Source: a virus (Duplodnaviria; Caudoviricetes). Taken from it: a stretch of 64,000 nt of DNA. Numbering within the stretch: position 1 is the stretch's first letter; each line of letters starts with the position of its first letter. Shown here piece after piece: positions 2,789-41,593 of the stretch. The notes beneath the pieces were generated by a model, which saw only the letters and a program-made list of their open reading frames with translations, was not told the origin of the DNA and did no database searches. Position numbers and translations under genes: made by a program. The stretch is from the IMG/VR virus record IMGVR_UViG_3300021959_007005; one strand, given 5' to 3'.

Positions 2789-4723
2789 ATGAGACTTAAT
2801 GAATTAACAGAAGCATTAGATAATCCATATCCATACACCTGGTACGAGCGTAGTAATGATACATGGACTGCATATGCAGAATTGAATTCAGAACGTTCAT
2901 CTGATGGAAGAGATGACGAAGACGCAACACTTAGAATAATAGCTGACAGAGTTTCAGGCGGTGATGACTGGGACGATGATGAGCGTGTGGTTCCTACCAT
3001 TTGGGAACTTAGCTTTATGACTGGTTATAAAACTCACAAGACCGGTGCAGGTGATCAATTTAGAATTTTTGCTACAGTGGTTGCCGCATTTACTGATTGG
3101 TGGAAACAAATGGGATCAAAAGTAAATGATATTGACGAACTTGAATTTACCGCAGATAAAGCAAAAGATGGTAAAAGCAGAGCAGTACTATATGCTAGAT
3201 TTGCTAAAAAGTTTGCACAAATGACTGGCTTTAATTTAGAAACTAAGCAAGATAGTTATCAGGATGTCTTTACGTTTGTAAATCCACAAAGTAGTTTTGC
3301 TGAGGCTTCAGTTACTGAAGTATCAAAAGAAGAGTTTGATGCTATTCAGAATGGATACGTTGATATTGAGTTTGATAAGAAGTGGTGGCCACTAGACGAT
3401 GATTACCCACTGATCAAACATATCGGTAAAGCAATCGGCGCAACTAGTTGGACTAGTTGGGGTAAAGTTGGTGTCCCATGGTCAGAAAAAGAAATGATCG
3501 GTGGCGGTGGCACATATATGCTTAAAGGTGATTTCGGTCATATCTTGTTGGATGCGGCTAAGAGTTTTAGCCCAGAACAAATTTTAATGGCACAAATATC
3601 AACTTCTAATCGTGGTGGTGGCGTCGGCGTTAAAGTTATGAACGCAATAAAGTCATATGCCGATCAAAAGGGTTTGCCAATAACAATATATAAAGTAACT
3701 AATCAGAAGTTTTTTGACAAGTTTGAATGGTTAGAAAAGACAGGTGCTGATACATACGAATATAAACTTAGTAGTTTTGCTGAGGCTTCAGTTACTGAAG
3801 AGGTAAGTCTTCCAGAAGATATCTTTCATATGAAAAACAGATTGCTAAAAGTTAAAAAAATAACTGATGCAATGGGTAATCGTCCAATAATGTTTAGAAG
3901 TTTTGTATATGACGCAGATCGTATTGGAAAAATTATTAAAAAGGTAACTAATGATAGTGGCAGAAAAATAAAAACTGGAAGCAATCAAAAACAACAAGAA
4001 GTCTTACAAAAACTTGGTGTCAACAATCCAACATTTGCAAACCTTGCAGCAGGAAAGCATGCAGATGTTCGCAGAACCTCACTTGAGGATCATGGGGTAG
4101 CTGGATTGCAAAACATTTTTATCCCAATAAGCAACGAAATATATTACAGTGATGCAGTTGAAGACTTGGGCATGGGTCGCTCAACAGGTGGAAAAAATAT
4201 TTCATTGCAAAGTGACTTTGATGTAGATAAAGCAGTAGCCAGTTATAAAAAAGGGTGGCCACCTGCTGGATTTGATAACGAAATAATTGTAGATACTGAT
4301 AAGTATTATCTTCTAAACTTGCAGTCTTTTTTATTAGAACTAACAAGTCCTGATATTAAAGATCAGATTAAACGTTTAAAAAGAGAATATGATAAGTCAT
4401 ATTCTAGCAATGCATCAAAAAATCAGGTCGATGATATTTTAAAAGATCTGTTTAAAACAAAAATAATGACATATAGTAATATATCACGCTGGATCGAAAG
4501 TGTTGCTATTCCTTTTGTAGATATGCTTGGAGCCAGTAGTGTACAAGAAAACTTTGCTGACGGTAAAGTAAAAGGCAAAAGTAGACCAGGGCGTGTAAAA
4601 CGTAGTGGTGCAAGTTGTAATGGTAGTGTAACAGAACTAAGAGCCAAAGCAAAAAAAGCCAGCGGTGAAAAAGCAAAAATGTATCACTGGTGCGCCAACA
4701 TGAAGGCTGGTAAGAAGAAATGA
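2789..4723 (+). CDS. Modular putative internal head polyprotein (unknown, GNAT-like, ART-like and basic Cys/His modules)
   Basis: MRLNELTE leader; linker SSFAEASVTE occurs twice; NRGGGVGVKVMNAIKSYAD resembles GNAT motif A; C-terminal ENFADGKVKGKSRPGRVKR...MYHWCANMK. Confidence 0.55.
   Translation: MRLNELTEALDNPYPYTWYERSNDTWTAYAELNSERSSDGRDDEDATLRIIADRVSGGDDWDDDERVVPTIWELSFMTGYKTHKTGAGDQFRIFATVVAAFTDWWKQMGSKVNDIDELEFTADKAKDGKSRAVLYARFAKKFAQMTGFNLETKQDSYQDVFTFVNPQSSFAEASVTEVSKEEFDAIQNGYVDIEFDKKWWPLDDDYPLIKHIGKAIGATSWTSWGKVGVPWSEKEMIGGGGTYMLKGDFGHILLDAAKSFSPEQILMAQISTSNRGGGVGVKVMNAIKSYADQKGLPITIYKVTNQKFFDKFEWLEKTGADTYEYKLSSFAEASVTEEVSLPEDIFHMKNRLLKVKKITDAMGNRPIMFRSFVYDADRIGKIIKKVTNDSGRKIKTGSNQKQQEVLQKLGVNNPTFANLAAGKHADVRRTSLEDHGVAGLQNIFIPISNEIYYSDAVEDLGMGRSTGGKNISLQSDFDVDKAVASYKKGWPPAGFDNEIIVDTDKYYLLNLQSFLLELTSPDIKDQIKRLKREYDKSYSSNASKNQVDDILKDLFKTKIMTYSNISRWIESVAIPFVDMLGASSVQENFADGKVKGKSRPGRVKRSGASCNGSVTELRAKAKKASGEKAKMYHWCANMKAGKKK
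3290..3320 (+). repeat. 31-bp perfect direct repeat, copy 1
   Basis: agtagttttgctgaggcttcagttactgaag, identical at 3770-3800. Confidence 0.97.
3770..3800 (+). repeat. 31-bp perfect direct repeat, copy 2
   Basis: Identical to 3290-3320, 480 bp apart and in frame. Confidence 0.97.
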
Positions 4724-5797: not shown

Positions 5798-5816
5798 AAT
5801 TAAAAATGGAGTTACT

Positions 5817-6722
5817 ATGAAAATAGCTATAATGCTTAGTGGGCAAGCTAGATATCTCGAACAAAGTGCTGAATGGTGGCAAAAAGTGTTTCCTAAAATA
5901 ACTGGATCACATATAGAGGTTGATTTTTTCTGTCATTTTTGGGAAGAACCGGGAAGAGACTTATATGAAGAATGTCAACGCCTATTTAACCCAGTTAAAT
6001 GTTTTATACAGTCTTATGATGATGTTTTTTATCCACATATGTATGCTATTCAAAATCTAAATAAAAAATATGATAAGCATACGGAACTAGTACCTAACGA
6101 TGTTAGGTCTACTTTATTATTTCCAGGAAGTGAACTTAGTACATATGCATATAATTTTCATGCGATGTTTTTAAGTGCATCTGCAATAGGAAAAATGTGT
6201 GGAGAGTTGACTGAATATGACTTTGTTATTAAAACAAGAAGTGATACAGTGTTTAATCCAATGGCCGAACATCATTGGATGAATTTATTACACAATATGA
6301 GAAAAGATATATACAACAATATTATATTTTCTCCTTGGATGCGTTTACATAACGGAAGCGGCTATTTTGGTGATTTGGCATTTATTTCTGCTCCATCTAC
6401 TATGTATAGATATTTAAAAAACTTAGACGATAATCTTATTAATGTGTGTACCAAATATAAATTTCTGTTTGGTGAAAGATTAATAGAATCTAGCTCTCCA
6501 ATTGCCCATTGGATGTGGCATAGATTAAGTATGGAATCTAAGGTTGATTGGCTTGCAATTAGTGTAGTTTGGCCTACACCATTTAATGCAGCATTAATAA
6601 GGAATAACGAACCAGTTACTAATTTTGATTTTGATACTATGCTAGAAAAGTATAAAAATGAAGAGGATTCGAGACATGCGGAAATGCATAAAAAAGATCT
6701 TATTAAACCAAGGTCAACTTAG
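5817..6722 (+). CDS. Hypothetical protein, putative glycan-modifying enzyme
   Basis: MKIAIMLSGQAR start, DFFCHFW and DFVIKTRSD pattern seen in surface-polysaccharide-associated proteins. Confidence 0.45.
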   Translation: MKIAIMLSGQARYLEQSAEWWQKVFPKITGSHIEVDFFCHFWEEPGRDLYEECQRLFNPVKCFIQSYDDVFYPHMYAIQNLNKKYDKHTELVPNDVRSTLLFPGSELSTYAYNFHAMFLSASAIGKMCGELTEYDFVIKTRSDTVFNPMAEHHWMNLLHNMRKDIYNNIIFSPWMRLHNGSGYFGDLAFISAPSTMYRYLKNLDDNLINVCTKYKFLFGERLIESSSPIAHWMWHRLSMESKVDWLAISVVWPTPFNAALIRNNEPVTNFDFDTMLEKYKNEEDSRHAEMHKKDLIKPRST

Positions 6723-27654: not shown

Positions 27655-28860
27655 ATGGCAAACTTAGTAGTAATAGGAACCCAATGGGGCGATGAAGGCA
27701 AAGGCAAAGTAGTTGATTTACTAGCAGAACAAGCAGATGTTATAGTACGTTTTCAAGGAGGACATAACGCAGGGCATACACTGGTAATAGGTGACAAAGT
27801 TTTTAAACTTAGCTTACTGCCCAGCGGTATAGTAAGAGAAGATAAAGTTTCGGTTATTGGTAACGGTGTTGTATTGAATCCTTGGAAACTATTAGAAGAG
27901 ATTGAACTAGTACAGTCACAAGGTGTAAACATTGATCCTAGTAGATTGATGATTGCAGAAAACACTCCGCTAATTTTACCCTATCACCAAGCATTAGATC
28001 AGTCAAGAGAAGAAGTAACTGATAAAAAAATCGGTACTACTGGCAGAGGCATTGGTCCTGCATATGAAGATAAAGCAGGAAGACGTGCAATTAAAGTAGG
28101 AGATCTTAGAGATGATGAACTACTCAAACATAGACTAGCAATAGCCGCAGAGTATCACGACTTTGACCAACAACAGTTGTTTAATCAGCTAGCACATATC
28201 AAAAAACATGTATTACAATATGTAAATGATGTACCACTTTATCTAAATCAAAAGACTGACTTAGGATTTAATATATTATTCGAAGGCGCACAAGGAAGCA
28301 TGCTAGATGTAGACTTTGGCACTTATCCTTATGTAACAAGCTCAAACACACTAGCAGGTATGGCTAGTATAGGCTCAGGGGTACCGCATAATAAGATACC
28401 AAATGTAATTGGTATAACAAAAGCATACACAACTCGAGTTGGCGAAGGGCCAATGACGACTGAATTATTTGATGATGTTGGAGAGCATCTAGCAAGTGTA
28501 GGTAAAGAAAAAGGTACAGTAACTGGTAGAAGCAGACGCTGTGGATGGTTTGATGTATCACAAGTAAAACGAACATGTATGTTAAATGGTGTTACTGGCA
28601 TAGCATTAATGAAAATAGACGTACTCGATAAACTCGAGACTATTAAGATTTGTACTGACGTACACAACGGAATACCAGTGTATGAAGAGCTACCTGGTTG
28701 GTGTACTAGTACAATAGGTATAACTGATTATTCAGATTTACCAAGACTTGCTCAAGAGTATATTAACCGTATTGAGCAATTAACACAAACCGAAGTAGTT
28801 TTGATATCAACTGGACCAGAAAGAGATCAAACTATTTTATTACAAGATTCTTTCTTTTAG
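27655..28860 (+). CDS. purA: Adenylosuccinate synthetase
   Basis: QWGDEGKGK, GGHNAGHT, GTTGRGIGP, EGAQG and TVTGRSRRCGW motifs. Confidence 0.95.
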   Translation: MANLVVIGTQWGDEGKGKVVDLLAEQADVIVRFQGGHNAGHTLVIGDKVFKLSLLPSGIVREDKVSVIGNGVVLNPWKLLEEIELVQSQGVNIDPSRLMIAENTPLILPYHQALDQSREEVTDKKIGTTGRGIGPAYEDKAGRRAIKVGDLRDDELLKHRLAIAAEYHDFDQQQLFNQLAHIKKHVLQYVNDVPLYLNQKTDLGFNILFEGAQGSMLDVDFGTYPYVTSSNTLAGMASIGSGVPHNKIPNVIGITKAYTTRVGEGPMTTELFDDVGEHLASVGKEKGTVTGRSRRCGWFDVSQVKRTCMLNGVTGIALMKIDVLDKLETIKICTDVHNGIPVYEELPGWCTSTIGITDYSDLPRLAQEYINRIEQLTQTEVVLISTGPERDQTILLQDSFF

Positions 28861-36863: not shown

Positions 36864-37057
36864 AAAACGCAGAATCGCAACGTATTCAAGATAGCGAAGA
36901 ACGTAGACAAGCTATGAAAAAAGAACGCCGGCAGCAAGAAGGCGAAATTATTCATCAAATTAAACAACCTAAAAAAATATACAAAGGCCGTAGTTTTAGT
37001 GGAATTGAAACTTCTTCAGGTACAGTTAATCGTGGGAAGGATTGGTACTCAAAATGA
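36860..37057 (+). CDS. Hypothetical protein
   Basis: ORF with overlapping stop/start. Confidence 0.6.
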   Translation: MKNAESQRIQDSEERRQAMKKERRQQEGEIIHQIKQPKKIYKGRSFSGIETSSGTVNRGKDWYSK

Positions 37058-37749
37058 AAAACATTAAAGACGTGCTGTTTATAGTACAAGCAAGGACTAA
37101 TAGTCAACGTGTACCTGCAAAAATGACAAGAGAATTTGCAGGTACTTGTCTATTTGAGATATTCATTAATAAGATTAAACAAACCAATATACCAATGGAA
37201 AACTTTTACGCAAGTGTTTGCGATCAAGAACTTATTGATATATGTAACAAACATGAAGTTAACATATTTAATCGCAGTTTAGCGTCACGCAACAGCGAAA
37301 ATGATTTAGTACAAATGTACGAATGGTGGGACAAATTTCCACAATACAAGTATGTTGTATTATTCAATCCATGTTTGCCATTCTTAAGCGTAAATACTAT
37401 AAATCAGTTTGTAGATCAATATGTTAGTAGTGAGCACGATGGCCTTTTTGGTGTTATGTCTAAAAAGCAATACTATTGGAACACCCAAGGTGAAATGATC
37501 ACACCCTGGCCAGCTGGTGTAACTATTATGAACACCAAAGTAGTAGAACCTACACTTGAAGCTGCACATGCATTATACGCTGGAAGACTTGATCTAATTG
37601 GCCAAGAGCGTTGGATGGGTGACTTTACAAAAAACAATCCTGCACTATTTGAAATGAAAGAGTTCGAATGCCTTGATATTGATTACGAATGGCAATTCGA
37701 AGTATATACAACTTATTGGGAAAAACATTATGGTAAAAACAATAGCTGA
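37054..37749 (+). CDS. neuA: CMP-nonulosonate (acylneuraminate) cytidylyltransferase
   Basis: QARTNSQRVPAK and final LDID..WQF motif; next to neuB. Confidence 0.82.
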   Translation: MKNIKDVLFIVQARTNSQRVPAKMTREFAGTCLFEIFINKIKQTNIPMENFYASVCDQELIDICNKHEVNIFNRSLASRNSENDLVQMYEWWDKFPQYKYVVLFNPCLPFLSVNTINQFVDQYVSSEHDGLFGVMSKKQYYWNTQGEMITPWPAGVTIMNTKVVEPTLEAAHALYAGRLDLIGQERWMGDFTKNNPALFEMKEFECLDIDYEWQFEVYTTYWEKHYGKNNS

Positions 37750-38539
37750 AATTGGCATCAATCACAACGGTGATTTAGGGTTATGCAAAGAAATGATCAC
37801 ACTCGCAAAAAAAGCAGGTGCTGATTATGTAAAATTTCAAAAGCGTGATCCGAATGTTTGTGTACCAGAAGATCAAAAGTCTAAATTAAGAGATACTCCT
37901 TGGGGAGAAATGACATACCTTGAGTACAAGCATCGTATTGAGTTCAATGACGAGTTTTATGAAATTGATCAACATTGTAAAGAAGTAGGAATCAATTGGT
38001 TTGTAAGTGTATGGGATACAAATAGTATTCAGTTTATGGCTAATAATTTTGATACTAGTATAGTAAAAGTACCAAGTGCAAAAGCCACAGACACTGAAAT
38101 TTTAAATATGTGCAATGCCATATATGGTACAGTAATAGTAAGTACTGGTATGTGTACACTGGAAGAAATTGAACAAATTGTTAGATATGTAGACAAGAAT
38201 AAACTTGTACTAATGCACACTGTAAGTACATATCCAGCAAAGACGGCAGATCTACACATTGACACAATTGATTACTTAAAACGTTATCAGGTTCCTGTTG
38301 GATATAGTGGACATGAGTTGGGTAAATTTATTTCAGCTGCACTTGCTCTAAAGGATATTGACTGGCTAGAGCGTCATTTTACTAGTGACAAAACACTGTG
38401 GGGGACTGATCAAAGTTGTAGCTTAGAAACACACGAACTTAAAGAGCTCATAGGAAATATGCAGATGCTCGAGAAGGCACGTGGTACTAGAGTTGGTGTA
38501 TTAGAATGTGAAATCCCGATACTAGAGAAACTAAGGTAA
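37730..38539 (+). CDS. neuB: Nonulosonic acid (NeuB-family) synthase, lacking the C-terminal SAF domain
   Basis: IAEIGINHNGD, VKFQ, KVPS, STGM, MHTVSTYP, GYSGH and ERHFT motifs. Confidence 0.92.
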   Translation: MVKTIAEIGINHNGDLGLCKEMITLAKKAGADYVKFQKRDPNVCVPEDQKSKLRDTPWGEMTYLEYKHRIEFNDEFYEIDQHCKEVGINWFVSVWDTNSIQFMANNFDTSIVKVPSAKATDTEILNMCNAIYGTVIVSTGMCTLEEIEQIVRYVDKNKLVLMHTVSTYPAKTADLHIDTIDYLKRYQVPVGYSGHELGKFISAALALKDIDWLERHFTSDKTLWGTDQSCSLETHELKELIGNMQMLEKARGTRVGVLECEIPILEKLR

Positions 38540-38549
38540 TTTAGTATAA

Positions 38550-39476
38550 ATGCATTTAAATAGAGATCTGGCAATTTTAATTCCAGGATTAACTTACGGT
38601 GGTAGTAAAAGTTCTGAATTTTTATCACATTGTGAACAAATCACAAATCAACTAAACAAAGGTAACATTAATGATGTTACTTTTTATATTAGTACGTGGG
38701 ATCATAAAAATAATAATACACATGATTTAATAACTGCAATTGAAAATTTTGGTTTTAAGTATAAATTAGATATAGAAACTTATCAAACATTTGATCAAAT
38801 CATACATGAAATAATATATGAAGATATGCCAGAGTTTGGAAAGCTCTGGGACAAATGGCTACACGAAGATTTACTCAAAGCTTCACAATGTTCAGCAGTT
38901 GACTACAAGCGTAGACATCTATCGATATACTATAAATTTTATAAAGTGTTTTATATGACACAACACGAACACCTAATTGTTAGGACCAAATCAAACAACG
39001 GAGTCAATCTACCAATACTAGATCTATTAGATTCTCTAGAAGAAACATTAGAATGGAATCAAACAAACAATAAGTTTAAACAACCTAGTAATTTCAATAA
39101 AGAATTAGGAAACGCAAATGAACTTATTAAATATGATAACTGGATATCATGTAACATTGATGGAGTGAGTAACAATGGTCTTGTAAAAGTCAATGAAAAT
39201 GGAATATTTGGATTAAGACCTGTTTTTGAACACAGGATATTTAACTATAATTCACCTAAGGAATTTATACTTAATGGTATAGCGTCTATATACTATCAGC
39301 AGTTCTTGGATAATTTTACAGCATCACAATTAAATAAAAATTTGTCAATGCCGCCTATAGCTAGTGGTAGTTTAGTGTGGGGTCAATATTTTACTAGCAA
39401 ACGTATACAGATACACCCAGTCTGGGCGTCTGCAAATCCTTTCTCTAAAGATGGACAGGTTCATAAAATGTACTAA
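38550..39476 (+). CDS. Hypothetical protein, putative glycosyltransferase-like
   Basis: LAILIPG..FYISTWD..IVRTKS layout similar to the 5817 ORF; follows neuAB. Confidence 0.4.
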   Translation: MHLNRDLAILIPGLTYGGSKSSEFLSHCEQITNQLNKGNINDVTFYISTWDHKNNNTHDLITAIENFGFKYKLDIETYQTFDQIIHEIIYEDMPEFGKLWDKWLHEDLLKASQCSAVDYKRRHLSIYYKFYKVFYMTQHEHLIVRTKSNNGVNLPILDLLDSLEETLEWNQTNNKFKQPSNFNKELGNANELIKYDNWISCNIDGVSNNGLVKVNENGIFGLRPVFEHRIFNYNSPKEFILNGIASIYYQQFLDNFTASQLNKNLSMPPIASGSLVWGQYFTSKRIQIHPVWASANPFSKDGQVHKMY

Positions 39477-39564
39477 ATGATAAATAAATAGATGGAAAAA
39501 TAAAGCTCAATTTTTTTTGAGCCAATTTTTTTTAGGCTGAATTAACTAAAAAGGAAAAAGATAA

Positions 39565-40437
39565 ATGACGCAACTCATAAACCCACGAAAATTTACACAA
39601 ACAGTTGGCCTTTTAAGGTCATTTTTTTTGGACAAAGGATTCTTGGAAGTCCACACCCAAAACAGACTAAGCATACTTGCCGCATGTGAAGATCCATTCA
39701 ATGTAGCAACGTACAATTACGCAGGCAACACTTGGCCACTACCCCAAACAGGCCAGATGTGGTTAGAACATGAATTATTAAGTAGCCCCGATAGTAAGGG
39801 GTTTTTTTGTGTCTCCACTTCCTATAGACAAGAGCCAAATGCTATACCAGGCAGACACGATATTATCTTCCCAATGTTTGAATTTGAAATGCCAGGCAGT
39901 GTAGATGATCTCAAAGCAATGGAAATTGAACTGTGTGAATACTTAGGCTTTGATGCACTAACAGAAAAAACTTACAGAGAATGGCAACAGCATTGGGGTG
40001 TAAGTGCAGACACCGAAATGGATGACAGTCACGAAAAAGCTATGGAAATGAACTTTGGTAGTTGTTTGATTACTGACTTTCCAGAACTAACATCACCTTT
40101 CTGGAACATGGCACGTAACGATGATGGCGAAACTGCCAAGAAGATGGATGTTATACTAGGTGGTATGGAAACTATTGGATCAGCAGAACGCTCGTGTGAT
40201 GTTGATATGATGCGTGATACATTCCATAGCATTGTAGACGGAGAGTACGCAGAGTTGTTATTCAAACTATTCGGTAAAGAACGTGTAGAAGCAGAACTAG
40301 AAGAGTTTCTAAAGTTTGACTTCTTCCAAAGAGTAGGTGGCGGAATTGGTATTACACGTATGATCCCTGCACTAGAAAAAATAAATGCACTAAGTGAGCC
40401 AATGGGTATGATTCAACCCATGCTGCGTTCAGCATAA
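39565..40437 (+). CDS. Class IIb aminoacyl-tRNA synthetase paralog (AsnRS/AspRS catalytic domain only)
   Basis: Motif 1 RSFFLDKGFLEVHT, motif 2 TSYRQE..RH..FPMFEFE and motif 3 GGGIGITR; no N-terminal OB-fold; 290 aa. Confidence 0.88.
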   Translation: MTQLINPRKFTQTVGLLRSFFLDKGFLEVHTQNRLSILAACEDPFNVATYNYAGNTWPLPQTGQMWLEHELLSSPDSKGFFCVSTSYRQEPNAIPGRHDIIFPMFEFEMPGSVDDLKAMEIELCEYLGFDALTEKTYREWQQHWGVSADTEMDDSHEKAMEMNFGSCLITDFPELTSPFWNMARNDDGETAKKMDVILGGMETIGSAERSCDVDMMRDTFHSIVDGEYAELLFKLFGKERVEAELEEFLKFDFFQRVGGGIGITRMIPALEKINALSEPMGMIQPMLRSA

Positions 40438-40444
40438 AGTTTAT

Positions 40445-40547
40445 TCCAGCCTGGTGGAAATGGTAGACACGGCGGACTGTTTATCCGTTGATTAATAACT
40501 CGCAAAGTATTTAATCGTGCATGGTTCGAATCCTGCGGCTGGAGCCA
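40445..40547 (+). tRNA. Atypical tRNA-Asn(GTT) with a long variable arm and encoded CCA, 103 nt
   Basis: 7-bp acceptor stem TCCAGCC/GGCTGGA, G73, CCA; D-arm GTG..TGG..CAC; anticodon stem GCGGA/TCCGT with loop CT-GTT-TA; T-loop TTCGAAT. Confidence 0.85.
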
Positions 40548-40556
40548 AAACAAAAC

Positions 40557-40585
40557 TTGACAATACCCTCGATTGTTGCTATTAT
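40557..40585 (+). promoter_or_regulatory. Sigma70-type promoter for rnh
   Basis: TTGACA-N17-TATTAT, with TGC before the -10. Confidence 0.7.
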
Positions 40586-40612
40586 AGGTAGATAAACAAT
40601 TGAGGGTTATTC

Positions 40613-41593
40613 ATGACATATATTCTAGTAGACACAGCAAACATGTTTTTTCGTGCAAGGCATGTAGTACGTGGAGATGATATTGATACCAAAATTGGTA
40701 TGGCATATCACATTATGTTTGCAAGTATTTTAAAAGCATATAGAGACTTTAACGGCAGTCATGTTGTATTCTGTTTAGAAGGACGCAGTTGGCGTAAAGA
40801 CTTTTATGAGCCTTACAAAGCTAATCGCAAAGTAGCTCGTGATGCACTTACTCCTAAGGAAGAGGAAGAAGATAAGGCATATTGGGAAGCATTTGACAAT
40901 CTTAAAGAGTTTATGGAAACTCGAACAAATTGCACAGTACTGCAACACAAACAATGTGAAGCAGATGACTTTATTGCTCGTTGGATACAGAATCATCCTG
41001 ATGATGAACATGTTATTATTAGTAGCGATAGTGACTTTTATCAGTTACTCACAGACAAAGTAACACAGTACAATGGAATTAGTAATCAGCATATTAAAAT
41101 AGATGGCGTTGTAAATGATCGTGGCAAGCCTGTAATTGACAAGAAAACTAAAGAGCAAAAACAAATTGGTGATCCCAGTTGGTTGCTGTTTGAAAAGTGT
41201 ATGAGAGGCGATAGCAGTGATAACGTGTTTAGTGCTTTTCCAGGTGTTCGTAAAAAAGGTACAAAAAACAAAGTTGGTCTACTTGAGGCATTTGCTGATA
41301 AAGATGCAAAAGGCTTTGACTGGAACAATATGATGCTACAACGTTGGGTGGATCATAATGGTGATGAACATCGAGTACTAGATGATTATCTACGTAATGT
41401 AACTCTAGTTGATCTCACACAACAACCTGACGACATTAAAGTAGCATTGGATGATGTTATCACTTCACAAGTACAGGCTACTCCAGTTAGTGGTGTAGGT
41501 ATTCATTTTATGCGGTTTTGTGGAACATATGATTTACAACGTATCAGCGATAACTCTCAAGCACATGCAGAATATTTAAATGCAGCCTACTGA
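40613..41593 (+). CDS. rnh: T4-type RNase H / 5'-3' flap exonuclease
   Basis: LVDTANMF, WRK.FY..YKANR, EADD, SSDSDF.Q and GD.SDN motifs. Confidence 0.92.
   Translation: MTYILVDTANMFFRARHVVRGDDIDTKIGMAYHIMFASILKAYRDFNGSHVVFCLEGRSWRKDFYEPYKANRKVARDALTPKEEEEDKAYWEAFDNLKEFMETRTNCTVLQHKQCEADDFIARWIQNHPDDEHVIISSDSDFYQLLTDKVTQYNGISNQHIKIDGVVNDRGKPVIDKKTKEQKQIGDPSWLLFEKCMRGDSSDNVFSAFPGVRKKGTKNKVGLLEAFADKDAKGFDWNNMMLQRWVDHNGDEHRVLDDYLRNVTLVDLTQQPDDIKVALDDVITSQVQATPVSGVGIHFMRFCGTYDLQRISDNSQAHAEYLNAAY

Follow-up and report, generated by a model that had tools for sequence, protein, structure and literature searches.

IMG/VR virus record IMGVR_UViG_3300021959_007005 (Duplodnaviria; Caudoviricetes) supplied a 64,000-nucleotide stretch of DNA, referred to throughout as the window, that encodes a 290-amino-acid (aa) protein resembling the catalytic core of asparaginyl-tRNA synthetase (AsnRS) and, directly downstream on the same strand, an abnormal tRNA-Asn. 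The favored interpretation of these two genes is a dedicated, co-transcribed aminoacylation pair, in which an AsnRS-like mini-enzyme would charge its own tRNA-Asn; we place its probability at a little under one half (about 0.48). It is built on the linkage of the two genes across phages, the fold of the tRNA, and the AsnRS-like fold and pocket of the enzyme; from these, we infer asparagine activation, charging of the tRNA, orthogonality to the host, and a benefit to the phage.

The mini-enzyme and its tRNA travel together in phages

A scan of IMG/VR found at least 596 viral stretches encoding relatives of the enzyme. The best 80 of these were examined together with the window and three cyanophages, giving 84 loci. 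The tRNA lies 4–10 nt past the enzyme stop codon, or overlaps the 3′ end of the open reading frame (ORF), at 80 of the 84 loci; three of the other four are cut by contig ends, and only L049 is truly without a tRNA, which puts the frequency at 80 of 81 testable loci. For the converse search, a pattern was taken from the tRNA only (the 3′ part of the D arm plus the anticodon loop), and more than 119 viral stretches matched it. The enzyme was directly upstream of the tRNA at 77 of the 80 loci returned (77 of 77 testable), and the other three had less than 900 nt of upstream sequence. Over both directions, these searches cover ~160 phage loci, with some contigs sampled twice where the tRNA-pattern and enzyme scans overlap. 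The linkage is close to obligate in both directions.

The pair is also carried by the cultured Prochlorococcus myophages P-SSM2, P-SSM5, and P-SSM7, in which the enzyme is annotated merely as "tRNA ligase" and is followed after ~8–10 nt by a tRNA-Asn(GTT) of 87–88 nt according to ARAGORN. In P-SSM7 the pair sits between gp23 and gp3, and in P-SSM2 it sits in another region; the different genome positions of an intact pair indicate that the module moved as a unit. A sequence-only reading of the window had proposed a dedicated enzyme/tRNA module, and this proposal is borne out by the linkage counts in both directions, by the single clade that the tRNA-linked enzymes form (described below), and by the movement of the two genes together.

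Phage tRNAs found within 3 kb of the enzyme include those for Trp, Gly, Pro, Thr, Cys, Arg, Glu, Ile, Leu, Ser, Tyr, Ala, and Asp. A second canonical tRNA-Asn was never found within 3 kb of the enzyme in these neighboring phage tRNA arrays, and the pair has no conserved companion gene (such as a transferase) in the P-SSM7, P-SSM2, and P-SSM5 contexts or in the neighboring arrays. In the annotated stretch of P-SSM2, the partner is the sole tRNA feature. Its annotation in AY939844.2 (P-SSM2; our locus L002) is displaced: the tRNA-Asn feature PSSM2_199 is given at 5802–5887, ~2 kb off and inside a coding sequence, and the true tRNA-Asn is at 3790–3877 of L002, right after the "tRNA ligase" and consistent with locus-tag order.

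At ~25 loci (L007, L018–L024, L026–L031, L034, L035, L041–L047, and L053), the synthetase stop codon lies inside the tRNA. Release of the tRNA by a cut at its 5′ end would strip such an mRNA of its stop codon, and mRNA and tRNA may be alternative fates of one transcript at these overlapping loci.

The tRNA joins an Asn-type acceptor end and anticodon to a Leu-like body

The enzyme stop codon of the window ends at 40437 and is followed by a 7-nt spacer, with the tRNA running from the eighth base (40445), as the sequence-only reading had it. ARAGORN called no tRNA anywhere in the window, and the only Rfam match on the window copy was a sub-threshold tRNA-Sec (15.9 bits against 47); the gene was missed because of its bulged T stem and variable arm of ~28 nt. 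With a covariance model (R1) built from 46 unique homologous tRNA sequences, the window copy reaches 97.8 bits (E = 1.6e-23). RNAalifold recovered the cloverleaf and the base of the variable arm from the same 46 sequences, with compensatory changes in 17 of 24 pairs and one U-U closing the anticodon stem as the sole unpaired cell. The cloverleaf is real and is carried by covariation.

Positions U1, A72, G73, U8, G18-G19, U33, and G34-U35-U36 and the T loop (GTTCGA) are invariant in 46 of 46 sequences. Acceptor pairs 2–7, the anticodon stem, and the variable arm vary and covary, and anticodon-loop positions 32, 37, and 38 vary; of the 33 tree rows scored, 26 have U at position 37, 5 have A, and 2 have C. 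The second acceptor pair is C2-G71 in 39 of the 46. The shortest arms have 13 nt (a GNRA-type loop on a 3-bp stem), and long ones reach ~28–35 nt (~10 bp capped by a conserved GCAA loop). Every marine-clade copy encodes CCA, which is absent from the cyanophage copies. The D stem of the window tRNA has 3 bp.

ARAGORN calls the short-arm relatives tRNA-Asn(gtt), and every top match of R1 in five cellular genomes was a tRNA-Leu. Judged by its sequence, the tRNA is a hybrid of an Asn-type acceptor end and anticodon with a Leu-like D-arm and long-arm body. It shares U1:A72, G73, and the GUU anticodon with bacterial tRNA-Asn but differs from it in having mostly U at position 37 rather than the A that carries N6-threonylcarbamoyladenosine (t6A), in its long arm, and, in the window, in the bulged T stem. 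With tRNA-Leu it shares the 3-bp D stem, a GAAAUGGUAGAC-type D loop, and the long variable arm, but its G73 excludes Leu identity. We know of no bacterial tRNA-Asn with a long variable arm. Bacterial Asn identity consists of the anticodon and G73, and U1:A72 is the determinant for GatCAB; under E. coli rules, LeuRS and TyrRS are repelled by G73 and SerRS by C2-G71, both acting as antideterminants, and in yeast t6A37 blocks AspRS from charging tRNA-Asn (PMC9976931).

The long-arm form is misread by ARAGORN as tRNA-Asp(atc), Glu(ctc), Gly(acc), Asn(att), or "Stop(tta)", or it is missed (L010–L082; examples are L010 3851–3951, L018 3838–3937, and L011 3136–3234). Automatic annotations of such phages can be expected to be wrong or empty at this gene.

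The enzyme is a free-standing class IIb core closest to AsnRS

The 290-aa ORF matched PF00152 (tRNA-synt_2) at E = 4e-16, with 59.3 bits against a cut-off of 25. The alignment pairs ORF residues 12–271 with positions 27–293 of the 308-position model, which limits the match to the catalytic core. PHROGs assigned the protein to phrog_29758 (E = 4e-130), a family of "unknown function". Models of the characterized enzymes fitted it poorly: the canonical AsnRS model TIGR00457 (asnS; the test was named TIGR00457 / NF003037) gave 33.1 bits, far below its cut-off of 342.6, and aligned only with residues 139–220; the archaeal asparagine synthetase A model NF005055 gave 19.7 bits against 389; the EpmA/GenX model TIGR00462 gave 14.7 bits against 286.9; and the AsnA model TIGR00669 had no match to the protein in the NCBIfam scan.

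Motif 2 (SYRQE...GRH...FEFE) and motif 3 (GGGIGITR) are both present and conserved. The conservation of Arg and Glu in motif 2, of the GSAER arginine, and of the arginine in motif 3 makes adenylate chemistry plausible. Cys41 and Cys211 (window numbering) are conserved cysteines specific to the family, and residues 277–290 of the window enzyme form a low-confidence tail that is missing from typical 276-aa relatives.

The AlphaFold2 model, computed from a 51-sequence alignment, had a mean predicted local distance difference test score (pLDDT) of 93.7 and a predicted template modeling score (pTM) of 0.90. Foldseek matched it to class IIb catalytic domains at template modeling (TM) scores of ~0.70–0.75, with AsnRS, AspRS, and LysRS cores on top. 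Exhaustive VIA-align comparison placed human, Brugia, and Pyrococcus AsnRS first (Z 27.0–27.8, root-mean-square deviation 2.2–2.4 Å over ~250 residues), ahead of yeast AspRS (25.0), GenX (EpmA; 23.9), AS-AR (23.3), LysRS (22.7), and AsnA (20.3). A profile search of PDB sequences gave the same leader, with AsnRS at 2e-14 followed by archaeal/eukaryotic AspRS at 5e-12 and, lower down, AS-AR 3P8T (7e-7) and EpmA (1e-4). Model residue 1 aligned with residue 122 of P. horikoshii AsnRS, in the region past its OB domain. The absence of an OB-fold from this class II protein, noted in the sequence-only reading, is thus confirmed both by the core-only Pfam match and by the structural alignment. A PF01336 search for an OB domain acting in trans came back empty for the complete P-SSM2 genome (252 kb) and for three related phage records, and the 308-aa ORF upstream of the enzyme had no Pfam or other domain match.

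In AspRS, a Lys/Asp pair recognizes the Asp side chain. At both of these AspRS/AsnRS-discriminating positions, the phage enzyme has Leu and Glu, as AsnRS does: in the alignments it reads QTGQMWLE and FEFE, AsnRS reads QSSQLYLE and VEAE, and AspRS reads QSPQLYKQ and LDVE/LDIE. The two residues, L67 and E106, are conserved in at least 90% of the family. On the predicted structure, the enzyme looks nearest to AsnRS, with an AsnRS-type pocket. It has in common with canonical AsnRS (PDB: 1X54, 2XGT, and 8TC8) the catalytic fold, motifs 2 and 3, and the Leu/Glu pocket residues, but it lacks the N-terminal OB anticodon-binding domain and hinge, is only 17%–22% identical, has Cys41/Cys211 of its own, and is tied genetically to one odd tRNA. 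Archaeal AS-AR (3P8T) and bacterial AsnA (11AS) are likewise free-standing class IIb cores, of ~290–330 aa and without an anticodon domain; the similarity to them is clear (Z 23.3 and 20.3) yet below that to AsnRS, and we know of no tRNA linkage for either.

tRNA-linked enzymes form one clade within a largely tRNA-less family

An exhaustive HMMER search recovered 681 clusters at 50% identity (447 at E ≤ 1e-10), mostly of 265–300 aa. In marine metagenomes, there are more than 8000 clusters at 90% identity. In a scan of species-representative genomes, 76 loci were found. Only six of these, all marine and at 62%–78% identity, had the tRNA; these six are probably phage contigs that ended up in metagenome-assembled genomes (MAGs). 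Two further loci, L097 and L098 (62%–65% identity), had no tRNA. Another ~65 cellular loci (43%–60% identity) had no partner tRNA, and distant homologs (31%–37%) likewise had none. The tRNA-less cellular carriers belong to Weeksellaceae/Moheibacter, Chitinophagales, Chlamydiota, Dependentiae, Patescibacteria, DPANN archaea, and Alphaproteobacteria, and two of the contexts, on inspection, are plainly cellular: a 1.2-Mb Chlamydia scaffold with McsA/McsB/YjeF as neighbors and a 3.2-Mb Chitinophagales chromosome with NhaA/DHODH as neighbors. The sequence-only reading had held that a usual lack of the adjacent tRNA in homologs would speak against a dedicated pair; no such lack is seen inside the phage clade, but it is the rule in the wider family.

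In a maximum-likelihood tree, the tRNA-linked enzymes formed one clade with a Shimodaira–Hasegawa-like approximate likelihood ratio (SH-aLRT) support of 97. The clade contains 38 tRNA-linked rows, the single loss at L049, and one contig cut at its end. Its neighbors in the tree are L097 and L098, then L088, and then a Bacteroidota clade. In L088 (~53% identity), the enzyme is followed, after a 9-nt spacer, by an 80-nt tRNA-Asn whose variable loop is normal and short and whose position 37 is U. In L089 (52% identity, 191-kb contig), a 108-nt tRNA-like RNA lies ~420 nt downstream of the enzyme, with an extra 135-aa ORF of no family match between the two (region L089 3354–3874). This RNA keeps U1:A72, G73, and a long arm, but its anticodon loop is CGGUCAC, without U33, and it may be a non-decoding derivative. 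We also considered L089 as an Asp-specific variant on account of its GUC-like loop, but the Leu/Glu pocket is retained in this enzyme and lends the idea no support.

Between tRNA-linked and tRNA-less enzymes, the catalytic motifs show only subtle differences: Q89 (N in the latter), A93 (P; motif 2 loop), and G199 (H). In the five cellular carrier genomes checked, AsnA was found in none and AsnB in three. AsnA was missing in four of four Weeksellaceae carriers, but it was also missing in 106 of 121 genomes of that family; the mini-enzyme gene itself is rare even in close relatives, at 1 of 151 genomes in Flavobacteriales and 4 of 121 in Weeksellaceae, and complementarity of the carriers with AsnA, as with AsnRS and AsnB, is uninformative.

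The length of the variable arm changes among closely related enzymes

The sequence-only reading had proposed that the long variable arm replaces anticodon recognition, and this part of it did not survive. On the enzyme tree, at least 10 changes in arm length (13 to ~35 nt) fall among enzymes that are 80%–90% identical, and the loop of the L088 partner is short. All marine-clade loci share the same flipping-loop and motif-2-loop segments, as far as these were examined, whatever the arm; only the cyanophage enzymes differ there. Arm length is therefore no strict substitute for anticodon reading, and we discarded the long arm as a strict identity element. The invariant parts of the tRNA that are open to an anticodon-blind enzyme are U1:A72 and G73.

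Covariation between the enzyme and the acceptor stem was also considered and rejected, given the invariance of the examined loop segments in the marine clade. A single substitution, M215Q (window numbering), occurs exactly in the two lineages that have G2:C71 rather than C2:G71 or U2:A71 (L001–L003, L067, L070, and L072); two events are too few, and the match may be a coincidence.

Transcription and genomic context

There is a weak hint that the ORF and tRNA form one transcription unit. In a marine metatranscriptome library, one contig corresponds to 39501–40561 of the window, covering the ORF and tRNA with zero mismatches, and no contig covers 40562–40604 (X1 and X2); such contigs cannot show RNA ends or exclude DNA carry-over. 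Runs X1 and X2 are apparently one data set filed twice, and X3 and X5 do not cover the tRNA. Upstream of the pair (Table 1) is a box, GATAAATA, that we liken to TATAAATA, which we take to be the T4 late consensus. Downstream, a sigma-70-like promoter starts 10 nt past the CCA, serves the flap endonuclease gene at 40613–41593, and marks the downstream edge of the unit. The region between the tRNA and the next ATG, over the promoter and ribosome-binding site of the flap endonuclease gene, also contains an imperfect inverted repeat (40562–40611), which produced a spurious mir-96 match of 22 bits.

Table 1. Features of the enzyme/tRNA locus in the window, with example loci of cellular family members
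Feature	Coordinates	Strand	Basis
T4-late-promoter-like box GATAAATA, just past upstream ORF stop; possible unit start	39479..39486	+	Sequence, inference
GC-poor hairpin plus T run, terminator-like; may end upstream unit or sit in 5′ leader	39505..39522	+	Terminator scan
290-aa class IIb synthetase catalytic core, AsnRS-type pocket, no anticodon-binding domain	39565..40437	+	ORF list, Pfam, structure model
Pocket/motif residues Q61, Q64, L67, E68; R88 and E90 (motif 2); E106, E108; R209; R265 (motif 3)	39565..40437	+	Alignment
103-nt tRNA-Asn(GUU)-like gene	40445..40547	+	Sequence reading, covariance model R1
Acceptor stem (U1:A72)	40445–40451 with 40537–40543	+	Sequence
Anticodon GUU; U37; loop CUGUUUA	40479–40481 (GUU); 40482 (U37)	+	Sequence
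Variable arm, ~28 nt	~40490–40516	+	Sequence
T stem, GCA-U-GG with CCUGC; bulged U	40519–40524 with 40532–40536; 40522 (bulged U)	+	Sequence
G73; encoded CCA	40544 (G73); 40545–40547 (CCA)	+	Sequence
Sigma-70-like promoter TTGACA, 17-nt spacer, TATTAT; 11/12 matches	40557..40585	+	Promoter scan
Cellular family members, examples (range L100–L165)	L148 2983–3840; L136 2935–3834		Genome scan

Directly upstream, the plus strand of the window at 37042–39476 encodes an overlapping cytidylyltransferase (PF02348) and NeuB (PF03102), followed by the 308-aa protein without a family match; this looks like a nonulosonic-acid module. At 27655–28860, also on the plus strand, is a 401-aa protein matching phrog_1211, a homolog of PurZ-type adenylosuccinate synthetase (E = 3.9e-120), and the phage DNA may, to judge from this gene, contain 2-aminoadenine in place of adenine. 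Asn makes up 5.3% of the window codons, with an AAT share of 63%, an unremarkable demand. By CheckV, related records of 78 and 133 kb are 22% and 37% complete, respectively (G001 and G265 (L017)). One relative, L096, is part of a 335-kb contig assigned to a Neomarinimicrobiota MAG, and several "MAG" matches are phage contigs. The window probably derives from a marine jumbo phage of ~350 kb.

A proposed dedicated aminoacylation pair and its alternatives

In the proposed mechanism, the minimal class IIb core would activate asparagine to Asn-AMP and, having no anticodon-binding domain, would pick its partner via the acceptor end, with its invariant U1:A72 and G73. The charged tRNA would decode AAY codons on the ribosome through its invariant GUU. 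Its Leu-like class-II body, combined with G73, mostly C2:G71, and usually U37, could set it apart from the host LeuRS, TyrRS, SerRS, and t6A machinery. The benefit might be an Asn-tRNA supply under phage control, for example by using free Asn directly in hosts whose sole route to Asn-tRNA is transamidation, or through a tRNA resistant to host anticodon-loop nucleases. The invariance of GUU beside an enzyme that cannot read the anticodon suggests that it is read by the ribosome or by host enzymes, and speaks for decoding.

Several observations weigh against a charging enzyme with its own tRNA. Most known synthetase paralogs without an anticodon domain (for example AsnA/AS-AR, EpmA, and GluQ-RS) do not charge tRNA. 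The ~65 cellular relatives have no partner tRNA, their catalytic motifs barely differ from those of the phage enzymes, and the shared activity may therefore not need a tRNA; canonical AsnRS is present in four of the five cellular carrier genomes checked. With GUU and G73 conserved, host AsnRS could charge the tRNA without the phage enzyme. U37 means the loss of the t6A37 site, normally an aid to ANN decoding. Finally, the phage enzyme is acidic (isoelectric point ~4.7) and has no extra RNA-binding module.

A stricter form of the dedicated pair, which we consider quite improbable, would be a decoding channel orthogonal to the host: owing to its Leu-like class-II body, G73, C2:G71, and U37, the tRNA would be invisible to host LeuRS, TyrRS, SerRS, AsnRS, AspRS, and the t6A machinery, and the phage enzyme, acting on the acceptor end, would be its sole loader. 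If so, the phage would hold private control of AAY decoding, and salvage of free Asn in AsnRS-less hosts would be possible; loading with an amino acid other than Asn or aminoacyl donation outside translation would be conceivable; and the pair would be the smallest natural class IIb synthetase/tRNA pair, ready-made for genetic-code engineering.

Among explanations that do without charging by the phage enzyme, the main rival, which we judge somewhat unlikely, is an ammonia-dependent asparagine synthetase, an analog of AsnA or AS-AR that makes no contact with the tRNA. The host would charge the tRNA-Asn, either by AsnRS or by non-discriminating AspRS plus GatCAB, and the two genes would be a co-expressed module for Asn supply. 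Paralogs that consist of the class IIb catalytic core only and make Asn are known (AS-A/AS-AR; PMC9437257), but the phage pocket has the Leu/Glu of AsnRS and not the Lys/Asp expected of an Asp-binding descendant, and both the structure and profile searches put the enzyme nearer to AsnRS than to AS-AR/AsnA (the AS-A model reached 19.7 of 389 bits). Family members without a partner tRNA are widespread in cells, with catalytic motifs nearly equal to those of the tRNA-linked enzymes, and the five cellular carriers checked all lack AsnA (two of them AsnB as well), although the lack of AsnA tells little in a family such as Weeksellaceae. A host-charged tRNA fits the retention of the full host Asn identity set (GUU and G73) and of the GatCAB determinant U1:A72, but the two-way linkage at 4–10 nt and the odd tRNA body would be left unexplained.

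The linkage implies that the enzyme has the tRNA as its substrate or partner, which would also be true if the chemistry were something other than ordinary aminoacylation of the 3′ end with Asn; this we regard as improbable. The options include acylation of a modified base 34 in the manner of GluQ-RS, ATP-dependent amidation of host-made Asp-tRNA(Asn), loading of another amino acid, and aminoacyl donation outside translation (Mom uses Gly-tRNA for DNA modification). U33-G34-U35 is conserved and the phage has deazaguanine-pathway genes (a radical SAM/QueE-like match), the enzyme in L089 is paired with a tRNA-like RNA that has no U33, and a phage enzyme has been shown to hypermodify DNA in a tRNA-dependent manner (PMC13219725); none of these chemistries is positively supported, however, and no conserved third gene such as a transferase accompanies the pair. 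U37 would remove t6A37, the block in yeast on charging of tRNA-Asn by AspRS (PMC9976931), but the invariant GUU and the frequent place of the pair beside phage tRNA arrays fit ordinary decoding, and the pocket resembles a normal AsnRS site for activation of the alpha-carboxyl group.

That the adjacency is meaningless, with the enzyme gene merely co-inherited at the edge of phage tRNA clusters, is very improbable: other phage tRNAs are often found within 1–3 kb, but one tRNA species is always the adjacent one (at 4–10 nt or overlapping) for enzymes down to ~63% identity, L088 (~53%) keeps a tRNA-Asn at 9 nt and L089 (~52%) a tRNA-like RNA at ~420 nt, the pair also occurs with no other annotated tRNA nearby (P-SSM2 and the window), and the neighboring genes differ by genome while the pair stays intact.

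Significance and comparison with known systems

If the enzyme charges its partner, it would be a natural minimal class II synthetase (~270 aa) able to work with no anticodon-binding domain, and its substrate would be a tRNA-Asn with a class-II (long-arm) body. To our knowledge, this combination of a tRNA-Asn with a class-II body has not been described for any organism. The pair bears on how phages privatize translation, through Asn supply, evasion of tRNA-targeting defenses, and infection of transamidation-only hosts; on the origin of new synthetase/tRNA pairs; and possibly on synthetic biology, as a compact orthogonal pair. It is abundant in marine viromes and is present both in ~350-kb jumbo phages and in cultured Prochlorococcus myophages, which makes it directly testable. 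If the enzyme is only an asparagine synthetase, the finding shrinks to a new AsnA analog and an odd phage tRNA. A by-product of the analysis is an uncharacterized cellular family of AsnRS-like cores in Chlamydiota, Bacteroidota, the candidate phyla radiation (CPR), and DPANN.

A search of the full-text literature found no study of the phage pair, only GenBank annotations and one row of a cyanophage gene table, which lists the enzyme as "tRNA ligase" (T4-GC 194; PMC3037559). Precedents come from cells: CysRS*, which has no anticodon-binding domain and is coupled to SelC*, and ProRSx with tRNAProA (PMC9437257). CysRS*/SelC* of Desulfobacterales resembles the phage pair in coupling a truncated synthetase genetically to an idiosyncratic tRNA, ProRSx/tRNAProA of Streptomyces resembles it in joining an extra synthetase paralog to a dedicated tRNA, and in both cases the dedicated tRNA has a non-standard body. 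Both differ from it in being cellular, in belonging to other synthetase families, and in recoding or duplicating other codons, whereas the phage pair is viral, class IIb, and, by sequence, predicted to be Asn-specific. The closest concept appears to be that of CysRS*/SelC*, a known concept that would here, by analogy, be realized with a viral class IIb core and a class-II-shaped tRNA-Asn.

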